A stretch of DNA of 64,000 nt, taken from the NCBI RefSeq assembly GCF_003334765.1, contig NZ_QOWT01000011.1; one strand, given 5' to 3'. Source of the stretch: Escherichia coli. Its GTDB lineage: Bacteria; Pseudomonadota; Gammaproteobacteria; Enterobacterales; Enterobacteriaceae. The translations under genes were made by a program, and so were the position numbers. Of this stretch, positions 54,692 to 61,855 are shown piece after piece (within the stretch, counting starts at the first letter, position 1; each line of letters starts with the position of its first letter). Under the pieces are notes generated by a model. That model saw nothing but the letters and a program-made list of their open reading frames with translations, was not told the DNA's origin and did not search any database.

Positions 54692-54716
54692 ATTCTGCAG
54701 ACACTGTCTGCAGAAT
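54692..54716. repeat. Palindrome ATTCTGCAGAC-act-GTCTGCAGAAT between convergent nanQ and yhcG
   Basis: Perfect 11-bp inverted arms with 3-nt spacer; member of the CAGAC-N3-GTCTG family. Confidence 0.85.
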
Positions 54717-54731
54717 TCGAAACCGCTGAAA

Positions 54732-55859
54732 TTAACGGCGTCTATAGCCTTCCTCTAGCACCGCCTGTGTTCGAACGAGTTCATCTGCGAGTCGTTTCTC
54801 ATCAGGTAGTTGCATCTTATATTCGCTTGCCAGAACGGTGTTAGGCAAACCTGCCAGAGCATAATGCGCTTCTCCGGCTCCTTTCTCTGCACAGAGAACC
54901 AGACCGATGGGCGGATTTTCATCCGGTAGCGTCCAGTGCTCTTTGGCGTAGTTGAGATACATATTCATCTGTCCGGCATCGCTATAGCTGAATTTGCCCA
55001 CTTTTAGATCGACGATTAGCAGGCAGCGTAAACGGCGGTGGAAAAACAGCAGATCGACACGAAACCAGTTGTCATCAATGCGTAACCTTCGCTGCCGACC
55101 AACAAAGGCAAAATCATCCCCAAGTTCCAGCATGAAATCCATCAGGTGGTTGATCAGCGCCTCCTCAAAATCGGATTCTGAATATTCATCTTTCAATTCC
55201 AGAAATTCGAGCACAAAGGGATCGCGTATCGCCTGTTGCGGAAGAATATGCGTCTCGGCAGGAGCGTGTTGTTGCAGCATGGCTGATTTGTCATGTGACA
55301 GTAGTGTCCGCTCATAAAACTGGGTCGCAATTTGCCGCTCTAGCTGGCGAACAGACCAGCCACAGCGGAGCGTCTCTTTTTCATAAAAGCTGCGGGCGTC
55401 AGCGTTTTTAACGGAAAGTAAACGGACGTAGGTGGACCTGGGCAAGGGGAAAGATTTGGCAGACAGCGTCTGCCAAATCTTTGCCGATGGGAATTCTGCA
55501 GACGGTGTCTGCGGAATTCCCAATGGTGTTAATTCGCCAGACATTGTCTGGCGAATTTCAACATGTTGAAAAAAGAGGTAAAAAAGCCTCATTTGGCGTA
55601 AGTTTTTTGCAGAGAACCCACGCTTATACCTTAGACATAAATCCTTTGATAGTCGCTTGATTAGCTGCGCACCATACGCAGCCCTGGCCTCGCCACCTTG
55701 TTCAAATTCGACAATTCGTCGGCCAATTTCCTGGTACGTCGCGGTCATTAACGCGTTAACGCTACGTACCGTTTCCGTCCGGGCGCTATCGACCAGATGA
55801 ATAATACCGTCGTGGATTTGCTGGTAGCCTGCTGTGGTTCCTTCTGAGAGCGATTCCAT
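54732..55859 (-). CDS. yhcG: DUF1016 N-terminal domain plus PD-(D/E)xK-type putative nuclease, uncharacterised
   Basis: 375 aa ORF with DUF1016-like N-terminus (...YGAQLIKRLSKDLCLRYKRGFSAKNLRQMRLFYLFF), then WSVRQLERQI...YERT and a C-terminal nuclease-like region (IVDLKVGKFSYSDAGQMNMYL). Confidence 0.85.
   Translation of the reverse strand: MESLSEGTTAGYQQIHDGIIHLVDSARTETVRSVNALMTATYQEIGRRIVEFEQGGEARAAYGAQLIKRLSKDLCLRYKRGFSAKNLRQMRLFYLFFQHVEIRQTMSGELTPLGIPQTPSAEFPSAKIWQTLSAKSFPLPRSTYVRLLSVKNADARSFYEKETLRCGWSVRQLERQIATQFYERTLLSHDKSAMLQQHAPAETHILPQQAIRDPFVLEFLELKDEYSESDFEEALINHLMDFMLELGDDFAFVGRQRRLRIDDNWFRVDLLFFHRRLRCLLIVDLKVGKFSYSDAGQMNMYLNYAKEHWTLPDENPPIGLVLCAEKGAGEAHYALAGLPNTVLASEYKMQLPDEKRLADELVRTQAVLEEGYRRR
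55451..55557. repeat. Three tandem near-perfect palindromes (CAGAC-N3-GTCTG core) embedded in-frame within yhcG
   Basis: aagatttggcagac-agc-gtctgccaaatctt (55451-55481); gggaattctgcagac-ggt-gtctgcggaattccc (55489-55521, one arm mismatch); aattcgccagac-att-gtctggcgaatt (55531-55557). Confidence 0.9.
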
Positions 55860-56043
55860 TATCTGTCCCTTTATATGGAGCTAAGTTGAATAATGGAATG
55901 AGCTATACTCTGGGGGGTGAGCACTGAACAATTAAGAACAGCGTATTACATTTACTTTCCCCAAGATATGCGAAGAGCTTTCCTGAAACATTAACCGATC
56001 GTATAAAACGAATGCCTGATAGTACTCCTGTCCGGCATTGTTA

Positions 56044-56760
56044 TCACAAGTAGACTACGCTTATCACAGCTTTCCCATCAAGTTCGATTTTTTCTGAACC
56101 GCCTAAATCATTCGCGATAGATGCGCTCACCTGAAGCGGTATAATGGCGTTCGTTACAGGAGTTGGGGTTGTTTCACCTGGTTTTACAAAGGTGTAATAA
56201 TAGCTTTGATCGACTGCAAGCGGATAAGCGGTGAGCGTTTGCCATGCTCTTTTTTGCCCTGTTATGACGGCATCTGCACCTGCTATTGATACAGCTAACG
56301 TCTGGCTACCATTGCTGGCACTAATGTTGTTGCTATCAATTAACACGGCATAACTACCGATATTTTTATTATCTTTTGTTTTCCCTAAGCCGAATAAGCG
56401 CGTTGTCTGGCTAATATAACCTCCGCCATTTAAGGTATATTTTACACCACTCTGACCCCCACTATCTTTTCCGGTGGTCATACTATCCATTCGTGTATCA
56501 CGAGCGGTAATCGCAATGCCGGTAGCGGATTCGCAAGTTATAGTCATATTAATATTACGTGTTCCAATCTGTGTGTAGTGCTGCGTTGAAAGTCTATTGA
56601 CTGAATGACTACCGAAGTTAACAACTCCGCCGTTGCTTAGTATTGGAGTACAAGCTGCAGCTTCCAGAGTCACCTTAACGTCAATTGATACTCTATCAGC
56701 GGCTTGCGCTGACATGGCAAAAAAGGCACTTCCGGCAATCAGTAATTTTACATTGTTCAT
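56044..56760 (-). CDS. yhcF: Secreted DUF1120 / fimbrial-like protein (GltF paralog)
   Basis: 238 aa ORF with signal peptide MNNVKLLIAGSAFFAMSAQA; C-terminus ...KIELDGKAVISVVYL resembles GltF ...TIKLDGNVTISVQYL. Confidence 0.85.
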   Translation of the reverse strand: MNNVKLLIAGSAFFAMSAQAADRVSIDVKVTLEAAACTPILSNGGVVNFGSHSVNRLSTQHYTQIGTRNINMTITCESATGIAITARDTRMDSMTTGKDSGGQSGVKYTLNGGGYISQTTRLFGLGKTKDNKNIGSYAVLIDSNNISASNGSQTLAVSIAGADAVITGQKRAWQTLTAYPLAVDQSYYYTFVKPGETTPTPVTNAIIPLQVSASIANDLGGSEKIELDGKAVISVVYL

Positions 56761-59700: not shown

Positions 59701-60375
59701 TTATTTTAAGTCAGTGACATATTTATTACCGCGATAACCATATCGGCTGGCTGGGTAAAACTCGACTTTTGTATCCGTAGCGTTTGTTAATGCAGTAGTT
59801 GTACTGGTGTGTGGTAGAAAATAGGTCTTATTTATAGCCCCCGTTTTTCCTGAAGGGAGCGTTTTAAATTGTAAGGTCATACGAACGACATAATTACTGG
59901 GGTTGCTAATCTCAATTTGGTCGCCATTTTTACGCCATTCCAGGAATTTCCAGGTCTCTCGCTCTTCCGGCAGGGAAGCCGGGTGGATCAGTACAGGTAG
60001 ATCCTGACGAATTGAAACAGTAACTCTGCTGCTCTTGTCATCTTTTGGTGGAATACCTTCGAACGTTACGCGTTTCAGCTCTTCTGATTGCAGAGGAACA
60101 GTCGCCTGAAGTAAAAATCGAACCTGTTGTACTTGACCGGCTTCAACACGAATAACGGGCTGAGTCGGGATTAAACGAATTGATTTATTGCTTTCAGGCA
60201 AATCAACAATGGTGGTGTAAAGCAATGAAGGATGATCATCTGTATTCTTAATATTAATACTAGCTTCACCACGCTTTTCATCAACCAGCAATACTGATGT
60301 TTCAGGAACCATCCCTGTGGCTAAGGTATTCATTGATGTTGTTATAAATACAGTGAATGTAATGTGTCTGAGCAT
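59701..60375 (-). CDS. yhcA: Periplasmic fimbrial chaperone (PapD-like)
   Basis: 224 aa ORF with signal peptide and PapD-like fold features; directly upstream of the usher. Confidence 0.88.
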   Translation of the reverse strand: MLRHITFTVFITTSMNTLATGMVPETSVLLVDEKRGEASINIKNTDDHPSLLYTTIVDLPESNKSIRLIPTQPVIRVEAGQVQQVRFLLQATVPLQSEELKRVTFEGIPPKDDKSSRVTVSIRQDLPVLIHPASLPEERETWKFLEWRKNGDQIEISNPSNYVVRMTLQFKTLPSGKTGAINKTYFLPHTSTTTALTNATDTKVEFYPASRYGYRGNKYVTDLK

Positions 60376-60546
60376 TTAAATTAAAACTCCTGTAATAATG
60401 ATAAATAACGCAGAAACATATTGTTAATATATGTTATGCACTGTTTGCGATGAGATTGATTAAGACAGACCATGTCATAGGGCATAATCTGTCCGAGTTA
60501 TAGCTAACTGGTTAATGCGTAAAAATAAAAACTGTATTACAAGTTC

Positions 60547-61311
60547 TTATAAATACTGAACGCTGATAGTGACGTTACCATCCAGTTTGATCGTTTCATC
60601 AGAACCAAGAATAGTATTGTCATTTACCGCAGCATCAATCAGTAACGGGAAGGTGACCGCTGTAATGGCAACAGGTGTCAGTTCCCCTGTTTTTGCAACA
60701 GAATAACCGCGCTCGATTGCTGAGCAACTTGTCAGCGAGCAGAATGCGCCATTAGATGAGGCTTTCCATGTGGGGGTCGCTGCTGACCAGTGGTCAGTTT
60801 GAATCAGGTCGACAGGAATTTCACCTGTATCGTCCGCCGCGTGAATCCCACCATTAGACCTGTCAATACCAATGGATGCAGCGCCAATTTTTTGTCCATT
60901 AGGCGCAGAACCTAAACCAAAGGCGTTTTTCGTTCCCTTCATATCTACGAGAGTATCATAAGCTTTTTCAATATAGGATGTGTCGTTTAACGCTACAATG
61001 GTCGACTGACGGTTATCCTTGGAGGTTACAGCAATTAGCGTTGGTGCTGTGCAGGTTATATTTAATGTGCTGTTTTTGCGGCCCAGTTGAACCAGTTTAT
61101 TACTTTTACCGGTCGGATTCAGCGCACTGTTATGATGTTTCCCATAGTCAACAATGCCGCCGCCCGTAACAACTGGGGTACATGCACCAGGGGTATACTC
61201 GCCGATGATAGTTAATTCTGTATCAGTTGAATCTGTTGCCATGGCACTGAATGCTGCAACAGAAAGTGCTGCACAAATAGCAGCTGTTGTGAGGTTCTTT
61301 TTGAAAAACAT
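60547..61311 (-). CDS. gltF: Periplasmic DUF1120 protein GltF
   Basis: 254 aa ORF with signal peptide MFFKKNLTTAAICAALSVAAFSAMA; paralogous to yhcF. Confidence 0.88.
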   Translation of the reverse strand: MFFKKNLTTAAICAALSVAAFSAMATDSTDTELTIIGEYTPGACTPVVTGGGIVDYGKHHNSALNPTGKSNKLVQLGRKNSTLNITCTAPTLIAVTSKDNRQSTIVALNDTSYIEKAYDTLVDMKGTKNAFGLGSAPNGQKIGAASIGIDRSNGGIHAADDTGEIPVDLIQTDHWSAATPTWKASSNGAFCSLTSCSAIERGYSVAKTGELTPVAITAVTFPLLIDAAVNDNTILGSDETIKLDGNVTISVQYL

Positions 61312-61830
61312 ATGAACATATCCTTAATAACAAATTTATTTTTTAAAATAAAAAGCTGAAGCAGTATATATATCTGTTTGTGAATGTAAATAAATAACTC
61401 GTTCAGAAATAGCCAACTTGCTGGGATGTATTTATTTAATGAATTTTATAGTTACGATCATGTGAATAATAAGGTGCTGGTGAGGTGGTTTGTGGTGATA
61501 ATTATTCATTACATGAATGTTTGCGCTGAAAAATAGGAAAATATATAGATAATTAAGGATAATATATTGGTTTTTTATATTCGTATTTTGTATATTAATA
61601 TCGAGACAATTTACATGGAATGAAAAGACTGAATAGCTTGCAGAATCGGTATTGTCAGAGGTGTTAACAAGTAATTGAGACGGATTGTAAATGAGAAATT
61701 GCTTGATGTGCTTCACTCATCAGACTTGGTGAACAAAGCACAATTTATTGAAAATTATCCCTATTATAGGAAAGGTCAAACGCTCATGCCGCATTTGCCA
61801 GAAAACAACGCGCACTTCGTCAGTAATTTG

Positions 61831-61855
61831 ATTCGCCAGACACAGTCTGGCGAAT
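61831..61855. repeat. Palindrome ATTCGCCAGAC-aca-GTCTGGCGAAT just 3' of gltD
   Basis: Perfect 11-bp arms with 3-nt spacer, 16 bp downstream of the gltD stop; same family as the yhcG copies. Confidence 0.85.

Follow-up and report, generated by a model that had tools for sequence, protein, structure and literature searches.

The 64,000-nucleotide stretch of Escherichia coli DNA analysed here (contig NZ_QOWT01000011.1 of assembly GCF_003334765.1; hereafter the window) carries nanK and nanQ on the plus strand, followed on the minus strand by yhcG, the fimbrial genes yhcF, yhcE, yhcD and yhcA with gltF, and gltD (61871–63289). Five short palindromes lie in and around yhcG, and genes of the YhcG/DUF1016 family from Bacteria, Archaea and viruses were found to carry a palindrome of the same kind at a fixed place in their reading frame. 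The five copies, with the gene that holds three of them, are as follows.

54692–54716, no strand assigned: palindrome E1, ATTCTGCAGAC-act-GTCTGCAGAAT, extragenic, between the convergent genes nanQ and yhcG
54732–55859, minus strand: yhcG, 375 amino acids (aa), with a DUF1016_N domain (PF17761) and a YhcG_C PD-(D/E)XK domain (PF06250), from the precomputed Pfam domains of near-identical proteins
55454–55478, minus strand: unit 3 within the yhcG open reading frame (ORF), ATTTGGCAGAC-agc-GTCTGCCAAAT, perfect arms of 15 bp, encoding KIWQTLSAKS
55493–55517, minus strand: unit 2 within the ORF, ATTCTGCAGAC-ggt-GTCTGCGGAAT, with one T:G / C:A position, encoding GIPQTPSAEF
55532–55556, minus strand: unit 1 within the ORF, ATTCGCCAGAC-att-GTCTGGCGAAT, encoding EIRQTMSGEL
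61831–61855, no strand assigned: palindrome E2, ATTCGCCAGAC-aca-GTCTGGCGAAT, extragenic, 15 nt after the gltD stop codon

All five palindromes of the original prediction were found in their places. The pattern ATT-N3-CAGAC-N3-GTCTG-N3-AAT (CAGACNNNGTCTG) matched the window five times (centres 54704, 55466, 55505, 55544 and 61843) against 0.05 matches expected, none of 100 shuffled sequences reached five, and chance matches of the CACACNNN type are negligible. A 16-base pattern, ATTNNNCAGACNNNGTCTGNNNAAT, fits all five copies exactly and, with up to three mismatches, identified no sixth site anywhere in the window. Arms are perfect over 11–15 bp, the sole exception being the unit centred at 55505 with its single T:G. 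The longer consensus with GAATTC at both ends, which had been proposed for all five, holds for four copies within two mismatches and fails for the unit centred at 55466, whose flanks are AGATTT and AAATCT. As had been claimed, none of the copies is followed by the T-tract of an intrinsic terminator (the sequences after the stems are CAAATTACTG, TCGAAACC and CTTTAAAAC). RNA hairpins are predicted for E1 and E2, in the case of E1 on both strands, and the three-unit region has a predicted folding energy of −67.8 kcal/mol (z = −10.1). The covariance models of Rfam 15 (E ≤ 10) returned nothing relevant for positions 54000–62500 and the annotation of strain MG1655 has no repeat feature, including repetitive extragenic palindromes (REPs), on the palindrome sites.

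E1 lies 19 nt past the nanQ stop codon and 15 nt past that of yhcG. Both extragenic copies are thus separated by 15 nt from a stop codon (gaps 54717–54731 for E1 and 61856–61870 for E2) and both are in frame with the preceding ORF, yhcG and gltD respectively, with in-frame readings of RILQTVSAES for E1 and IRQTVSGES for E2. The probability that both are in frame by chance is about 1/9, and the shared placing may be a coincidence or a trace of the copying route. The yhcG allele P0021 reads through into E1, gaining ...RILQTLSGES.

The units within yhcG are repeated with a period of 39 bp, equal to 13 codons, between the DUF1016_N and PD-(D/E)XK domains. In the AlphaFold model of YhcG residues 97–125 are coil, and residues 101–120, the stretch encoded by the palindromes, have a predicted local distance difference test score (pLDDT) <50, suggesting a linker that is probably disordered. 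A comparison across E. coli strains showed that the number of units varies from one to three amongst alleles, with proteins of 349 aa (one unit), 362 aa (two units), and 375 aa (three units), while other alleles (370 and 382 aa) have units with different stems that are equally self-complementary. The orthologues of Salmonella and Citrobacter possess one unit, ATTCAGCAGAC-act-GTCTGGTGAAT; its counterpart in the window is unit 1, which is also the unit retained in the single-unit alleles.

Both of its domains place yhcG in the YhcG/DUF1016 family, which comprises >21,000 clusters at 50% identity with E ≤ 0.001 and has members in type I restriction-modification (R-M) loci, prophages, and conjugative elements. 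To our knowledge, no mechanism has been established for this family. PADLOC assigned YhcG to the candidate defence gene PDC-S02 (E = 2.8e-131) and a Foldseek comparison identified NucS/EndoMS as closest to its nuclease domain; no relatives were found in a sequence search of the PDB and no NCBIfam family was matched. The YhcG-type nuclease domain was earlier related to DUF91 and the archaeal Holliday-junction resolvases (PMC1189080), a paper on inversions reports DUF1016 genes adjoining shufflon-type R-M loci, and the deletion of yhcG is synthetic-lethal with hypomorphs of dnaB, dnaN, and parE, in a functional network that groups YhcG with HsdMRS and McrABC (PMC2672614).

Using one genome from each of 100,044 species, the 16-base pattern was found at 120 loci or more spanning more than 15 phyla, Archaea included (Bacteroidota, Actinomycetota, Clostridia, Legionellales, Burkholderiales, Acidobacteriota, Verrucomicrobiota, Planctomycetota, Gemmatimonadota, Myxococcota, Ignavibacteriota, Elusimicrobiota, Methanoperedens, Woesearchaeota, and others). 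Among the matches listed, a DUF1016/YhcG ORF holds or adjoins the palindrome at 90 of 120 loci, typically 230–340 nt into the homologue and almost always with the CAG in frame 0 (Gln), and the six bases that the pattern leaves free are fully complementary in 80 of 133 copies, compared to a chance of 1/64. Of the 30 listed loci with no homologue, about 11 look like chance matches; the others include several that are pieces of DUF1016 genes or neighbours of type I R-M genes. As this set was selected by the palindrome itself, two further samples (80 viral and 80 metagenomic contigs) were chosen by the C-terminal motifs FLLELGxGF and DLVFY alone, blind to the linker. Hairpins whose core was perfect over 6 bp or more, mostly with a 3-nt centre, were present in 53 of 69 distinct viral linkers and 66 of 77 distinct metagenomic linkers. 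Palindromes whose arms were perfect over 8 bp or more numbered 86 in 55 non-redundant genes (6.2 ± 2.6 after codon shuffling), 78 of which fell at query residues 100–140. The association with yhcG that had been remarked upon in E. coli is therefore an instance of a component found throughout the YhcG/DUF1016 genes.

The module occupies the linker between the N-terminal and PD-(D/E)XK domains, usually directly ahead of the conserved LSWSHY motif, and consists of an AATT...AATT base, arms of 9–15 bp, a C:G top pair, and a 3-nt centre that is usually A-S-T. The tops of the stems differ completely from gene to gene (CAGAC/GTCTG, AACGC/GCGTT, TCCGC/GCGGA, GTATC/GATAC, TACAC/GTGTA, CACTC/GAGTG, GAGAC/GTCTC, GCGGT/ACCGC, GCAAC/GTTGC, and TCAGCA/TGCTGA). 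The linker peptides are translations of these stems (IxQTxSxE, IANALRSQF, IASAVRTQL, IVVSLIRQL, ICYTLCSKL, CETLSHKL, and FVQRVVAQI), and those of distant homologues share nothing beyond what the palindrome dictates. Position, frame, AATT base, C:G top, and A-S-T centre, in turn, are kept across Bacteria, Archaea, and viruses at 30–40% protein identity. Hairpins with the strict signature occurred 83 times in the genes, five times in the 300-nt flanks, and not at all farther away (794 kb of neighbouring DNA). In some DUF1016 genes, the hairpin lies immediately outside the ORF, on its upstream or downstream side. Flanking copies were considered as a general rule and rejected, with only five strict cases, four of them in the pattern-selected loci, and are best described as occasional. 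No description of a palindrome in DUF1016/yhcG genes was found in Rfam or in the literature covered (open-access papers and bioRxiv), and the module is apparently undescribed so far.

Base pairing in the linker was assessed on an alignment of 141 distinct sequences that took the LSW Trp codon as its anchor and was blind to the hairpin, with pairs counted in Python on ungapped, protein-anchored alignments. In a fixed 12-bp register, and uncorrected for phylogeny, 68% of the pairs were Watson-Crick, compared to 41 ± 0.8% after column shuffling and 18–29% in registers slid along the alignment, an excess of compensatory change over both controls as expected of a structured nucleic-acid element. 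At least 10 of the 12 pairs were present in 74 of the 141 sequences, three or four types of Watson-Crick pair were observed at 10 of the 12 stem positions, and pairs of residues in the encoded peptides covary as the base pairing dictates. The description of the palindrome as family-wide, covarying, and in frame is strongly supported. Because the covariation appears in a blind register and the peptides are unrelated, it is as a base-paired structure, and not as a peptide, that the module is maintained.

The excess of G:U pairs on the sense strand that is expected of an RNA structure, where G:U should be tolerated much above A:C, was looked for in three counts and seen in none: the blind register (G:T 4.8%, A:C 4.5%), stems detected symmetrically (G:T 22/716, A:C 29/854), and internal mismatches read on the sense strand (G:T 7, A:C 18). 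At synonymous third positions within the stems, Watson-Crick was preferred to wobble by 283:1, a ratio partly biased by the selection for perfect cores, though background codon usage (C/(C+T) = 0.39, A/(A+G) = 0.57) would permit wobble. Nucleotides 1 and 3 of the centre are complementary in 28 of 40 and 47 of 76 cases, and the module is a near-perfect dyad about a single central base. Since G:T does not exceed A:C and the centre has dyad symmetry, a DNA structure, hairpin or cruciform, is favoured over one in mRNA alone, and we infer that the module acts at the DNA level rather than only in the mRNA. Template switching between the arms probably helps to keep them perfect.

Unusual copies were observed at several loci. 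In one (L088), the DUF1016 gene is flanked by a direct repeat of 48–51 bp (1138–1188 and 2324–2374) containing the palindrome AATTTGCCAGACAGTGTCTGGCAAATT, while the hairpin in its own linker is degenerate (YEKSQTISAGLSW), a layout that looks like a cassette bounded by the module. In a metagenome-assembled genome of the Legionellales (L004, 4089–4136), two palindromes share one AATT and lie 23 nt apart, mutually out of frame, in non-coding DNA after a 175-aa ORF and with no DUF1016 gene within the 8-kb locus; existence and duplication of the module are thus possible in non-coding DNA also. A viral/prophage subgroup (L185, L187, and L190–L194) possesses a second conserved, G+C-rich palindrome, TCGAGGCGGCGCG-caag-CGCGCCGCCTCGA, at about 1505–1543, which is located in the N-terminal coding region near query residue 28 and is additional to the linker hairpin.

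At the E. coli locus, a BLAST search of 5,426 complete genomes recovered close copies only at yhcG (the '5 places' reported per genome are these five copies, each matched on either strand). Because of this confinement the extragenic copies are regarded as derived duplicates, and the dispersed, mobile family resembling miniature inverted-repeat transposable elements (MITEs) that was originally suggested is not borne out. The gene order in Salmonella and Citrobacter is gltB-gltD-yhcG with no extragenic copy, and in E. coli SB0258h1 it is gltD-yhcG-palindrome-nanQ, with E2 absent. In the window, the fimbrial operon is inserted between gltD and yhcG, and E2 sits 13 nt within the inserted DNA, at the site of the former native gltD terminator. 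ATCC 25922, a B2-type strain, has nanQ, a single palindrome, and gltD; its outer flanks are homologous to those of the window and yhcG is ancestral beside gltD, so the B2 state is a deletion of the 7.1 kb between E1 and E2. The two extragenic copies are the boundaries of this yhcG and fimbrial segment that B2 strains are missing. A further breakpoint is located exactly at the outer base of the unit 3 stem, where yhcG is truncated and joined to foreign DNA in 726 of the 5,426 genomes (~13%), including BL21. E. coli ATCC 43896 (L367, 2030–2520) exhibits this same BL21-type arrangement, a fourth state of the gltD-nanQ locus, in which the fimbrial operon is absent and an N-terminal fragment of yhcG is joined to ~470 bp of single-copy foreign DNA with a 101-aa ORF annotated as 'transposase'; this ORF has no match in NCBIfam.

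Published Term-seq data place a transcript end at E2.

61827, minus strand: primary 3′ end of the gltD mRNA (MG1655 3360660; Term-seq, Adams et al. 2021, eLife, PMC7815308, supplementary file 1)

The coordinate was converted using the end of gltD at 3360616 in MG1655 and the identical sequence of the window. The transcript ends 4 nt beyond the last A-T pair of the E2 hairpin with no U-tract after it, and E2 thus behaves as a 3′-end hairpin but is not a canonical terminator. The predicted role in RNA stability or 3′-end formation accordingly stands for E2 and does not extend to the units inside yhcG, where the same dataset (PMC7815308) lists no 3′ end.

Taken together, each palindrome is probably a copy of a hairpin-forming module, ancient and intrinsic to YhcG/DUF1016 genes, that is kept at the nucleic-acid level. 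Its arms would evolve by compensatory substitution, with the peptides merely their translations, and the module would operate as a DNA hairpin or cruciform rather than in mRNA alone. Because it accompanies a single gene family in Bacteria, Archaea, and viruses alike, its partner should be either a universal machinery or the product of the gene itself. For the latter, the nuclease domain of YhcG, which resembles Holliday-junction resolvases and NucS, may recognise the extruded hairpin or cruciform, and such recognition could serve self-regulation or make the palindrome a cognate cis site. That YhcG is the protein that binds it, which takes up the original suggestion of a protein recognition site and remains the leading idea, is a tentative proposal, drawn from the fold relationship and the genetic interaction with replication genes. 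Equally tentative is the fuller proposal that each YhcG/DUF1016 gene is a self-contained pair, a structure-specific nuclease together with its own cognate DNA hairpin or cruciform carried in frame in the linker, where it would be recognised and perhaps cut or resolved. In E. coli, the module would have been multiplied into one to three 39-bp units within the ORF and two derived copies outside of it, the latter serving both as rearrangement substrates and as hairpins at transcript 3′ ends, a role shown only for gltD.

A number of points weigh against this explanation. Direct functional evidence comes from the gltD 3′ end only, which is an effect at the level of RNA, and Term-seq is silent at the in-frame units. 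Some 15–25% of family members have no detectable hairpin, meaning that it is not indispensable. The linker-blind samples represent subfamilies selected by motif, the pair frequencies could in part reflect shared descent, and the BLAST search was able to detect near-identical copies alone, such that diverged ones could escape. Quasi-palindrome template switching could also keep strand-symmetric, Watson-Crick arms in the absence of function, and arms of 11–14 bp are close to the minimum length at which cruciforms extrude in vivo.

The most probable of the alternatives treats the module as an mRNA hairpin between the halves of the message encoding the two domains, where it might pause ribosomes for co-translational folding, serve as a processing site or a block to exonucleases, or act as a site through which the nascent N-terminal domain represses translation of a toxic nuclease domain, the extragenic copies being ordinary 3′-end stabilisers. 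The low folding energy of the three-unit region, the folding of the extragenic copies, the gltD transcript ending just past E2, and the presence of the hairpin just outside some ORFs are compatible with such a role, and a position exactly at the domain boundary suits a translational one. The pairing itself is not: G:U does not exceed A:C in any of the three counts, wobble is avoided even where it would be synonymous, and the loop ends are complementary, a feature unnecessary in an RNA hairpin. Further, there is no U-tract, and Term-seq lists no ORF-internal end at the yhcG units. This explanation is on balance unlikely. The strict, strand-symmetric Watson-Crick arms would equally be produced if the palindrome had no function and perpetuated itself in a disordered linker that tolerated mutation in the ancestral gene, kept perfect by quasi-palindrome correction through intrastrand template switching and by slippage, which would also generate the tandem units, duplicates, and breakpoints. 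The variable copy number, the quite different perfect stems within a single species, the breakpoints at stem bases, and a linker that is modelled with very low confidence, appears tolerant, and has lost the hairpin in 15–25% of genes are all as this predicts. Yet it does not account for the retention of position, frame, AATT base, C:G top, and A-S-T centre at 30–40% identity or for the lack of comparable palindromes in the 794 kb of neighbouring DNA, and template switching fails to explain the complementary loop ends. Palindromes are normally prone to deletion, so their long retention implies selection, and we consider this explanation improbable.

The remaining explanations have far less in their favour. 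A mobile element of the MITE or REP type, possibly mobilised by YhcG and inserted in and around its gene, would be consistent with copies within the gene and on both sides of it, with one copy at the apparently empty B2 site and two at the occupied site, with the palindrome-containing direct repeat around the L088 gene, and with solitary or non-coding tandem copies such as those of L004. None of the 5,426 E. coli genomes has close copies elsewhere, however, and the copies are bounded neither by terminal repeats nor by target duplications. That position and frame stay constant across phyla indicates inheritance with the gene and not repeated insertion, the ancestral adjacency of yhcG and gltD makes the B2 state a deletion instead of an empty target, strict hairpins disappear beyond the 300-nt flanks, and several of the solitary copies are DUF1016 fragments. 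Mobility of this kind is very improbable. At the least probable end are selection for the peptide motif I-x-Q-T-x-S-x-E, with DNA symmetry as a by-product, and an operator for a host transcription factor, both rejected because of the covariation. The QTxS peptide does recur in many homologues, but the peptides of other homologues are unrelated and each derives from a different perfect palindrome, the residue pairs covary according to base pairing, non-coding copies exist, and the encoded stretch has a pLDDT <50. As for an operator, no single host factor spans Bacteria and Archaea, and units in one genome differ in their arms yet stay self-complementary to an extent beyond what half-sites need. 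A CRISPR-like array (clustered regularly interspaced short palindromic repeats) was also considered and rejected, as the units are 39 bp, translated, and without spacers.

The nearest analogy to the module amongst known systems is provided by REPs, which with their larger assemblies, the bacterial interspersed mosaic elements (BIMEs), are associated with the REP-associated tyrosine transposase (RAYT; TnpA_REP). In both cases short palindromes lie beside the gene of a DNA-cleaving enzyme that might recognise them in hairpin form, copies flank that gene, and extragenic copies form hairpins at mRNA 3′ ends. The analogy fails on location, copy number, and enzyme class. REPs are extragenic, imperfect, dispersed in hundreds of copies, and marked by a conserved 5′ tetranucleotide, and RAYT is an HUH/Y1 enzyme; the main copy of the module is in frame within an ORF, a genome has about five copies, all at one locus, and the candidate partner enzyme is a PD-(D/E)XK nuclease and no RAYT. 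In line with the original prediction, then, the palindromes are not REP/BIME elements: three of the five window copies are inside the yhcG ORF, as most copies in the family are inside ORFs, and the other 57 kb of the window contain no copy with up to three mismatches. Nor do they resemble MITEs, being bare palindromes of 25–31 bp at a fixed place in one gene family without dispersed copies. Rickettsia palindromic elements (RPEs) are likewise palindromes tolerated in frame and translated into a surface or linker segment, though RPEs are 100–150 bp long and arose by insertion, being dispersed over many unrelated genes within a single genus, whereas the module is ~25–31 bp and keeps to one gene family, in which its position and frame are the same in all domains of life where it was seen (90 of the 120 listed loci are in or beside DUF1016 genes).

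Hairpin-protected mRNA 3′ ends, such as REP-type stabilisers and bidirectional terminators, are a fair likeness for E2 with its transcript end after gltD and for E1 between convergent genes. The likeness covers only these two E. coli-specific extragenic copies and not the module within ORFs, and the G+C-rich stem followed by a U-tract that defines an intrinsic terminator is not present. The type III toxin-antitoxin system ToxIN shares the arrangement of structured tandem repeats of ~39 nt (36 nt in ToxI, whose RNA neutralises the cognate nuclease) in cis with a candidate defence nuclease, but ToxI is upstream of the toxin ORF and consists of non-coding pseudoknots acting as RNA, unlike the translated and strand-symmetric units here. 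Quasi-palindrome correction predicts both the concerted Watson-Crick evolution of the arms and the local duplications; it is a mutational process, not a function, and leaves position, frame, base, and centre unexplained. The substrates of Holliday-junction resolvases and NucS/EndoMS offer a further parallel, with the YhcG nuclease domain nearest to NucS/EndoMS and a perfect palindrome able to extrude a four-way junction. We know of no family in which a resolvase-like gene carries its own palindrome.

The covarying palindrome is a first concrete, testable handle on the YhcG/DUF1016 family, in which it is likely to be a ligand or a site of regulation. Dual coding of this sort, with a nucleic-acid structure dictating a segment of protein, is unusual, and puzzling 'repeats' in the linkers are explained as stem translations. 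Peptide repeats or 'mini-CRISPR'-like arrays annotated in these genes should accordingly be read as reflections of a DNA element. In E. coli, the module accounts for the length variation of yhcG, for the recurrent breakpoints in the gltD-nanQ interval, and for a gltBD mRNA 3′ end that is non-canonical. If nuclease and hairpin do form a self-contained pair, the hairpin could act from within the gene as the switch or sensor of a nuclease that is a candidate for action against phages or on replication intermediates, or, alternatively, as a cis site driving local rearrangement and the spread of the gene. Such a pair would constitute a new arrangement across Bacteria, Archaea, and viruses, with a coding sequence doubling as the DNA-structure ligand of its own product.

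Several minor features of the locus were observed. The same Term-seq dataset (PMC7815308) includes a very abundant 3′ end at MG1655 3367641 (minus strand), internal to the non-coding RNA G0-10703 and antisense to yhcF; in the window it corresponds to 55995–56055 (plus strand; end at ~56045; CCGATCGTATAAAACGAATGCC...CACAAGTAGAC), in the yhcF-yhcG intergenic region. G0-10703 is a stationary-phase transcript that is divergent from and antisense to the 5′ region of yhcG (PMC7967276). Where the inserted fimbrial operon has its edge, in the interval from gltF to gltD, ~520 bp of very A+T-rich DNA (61312–61830) look horizontally acquired and are possibly silenced; an 'orphan' Term-seq 3′ end (MG1655 3360783) falls inside this stretch. 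The window does not come from K-12: its unit array differs from that of K-12 derivatives by one base, and yhcE, which is split by IS5R in MG1655 (3365185–3366929), is present in the window as an uninterrupted ORF of 183 aa (56757–57308).

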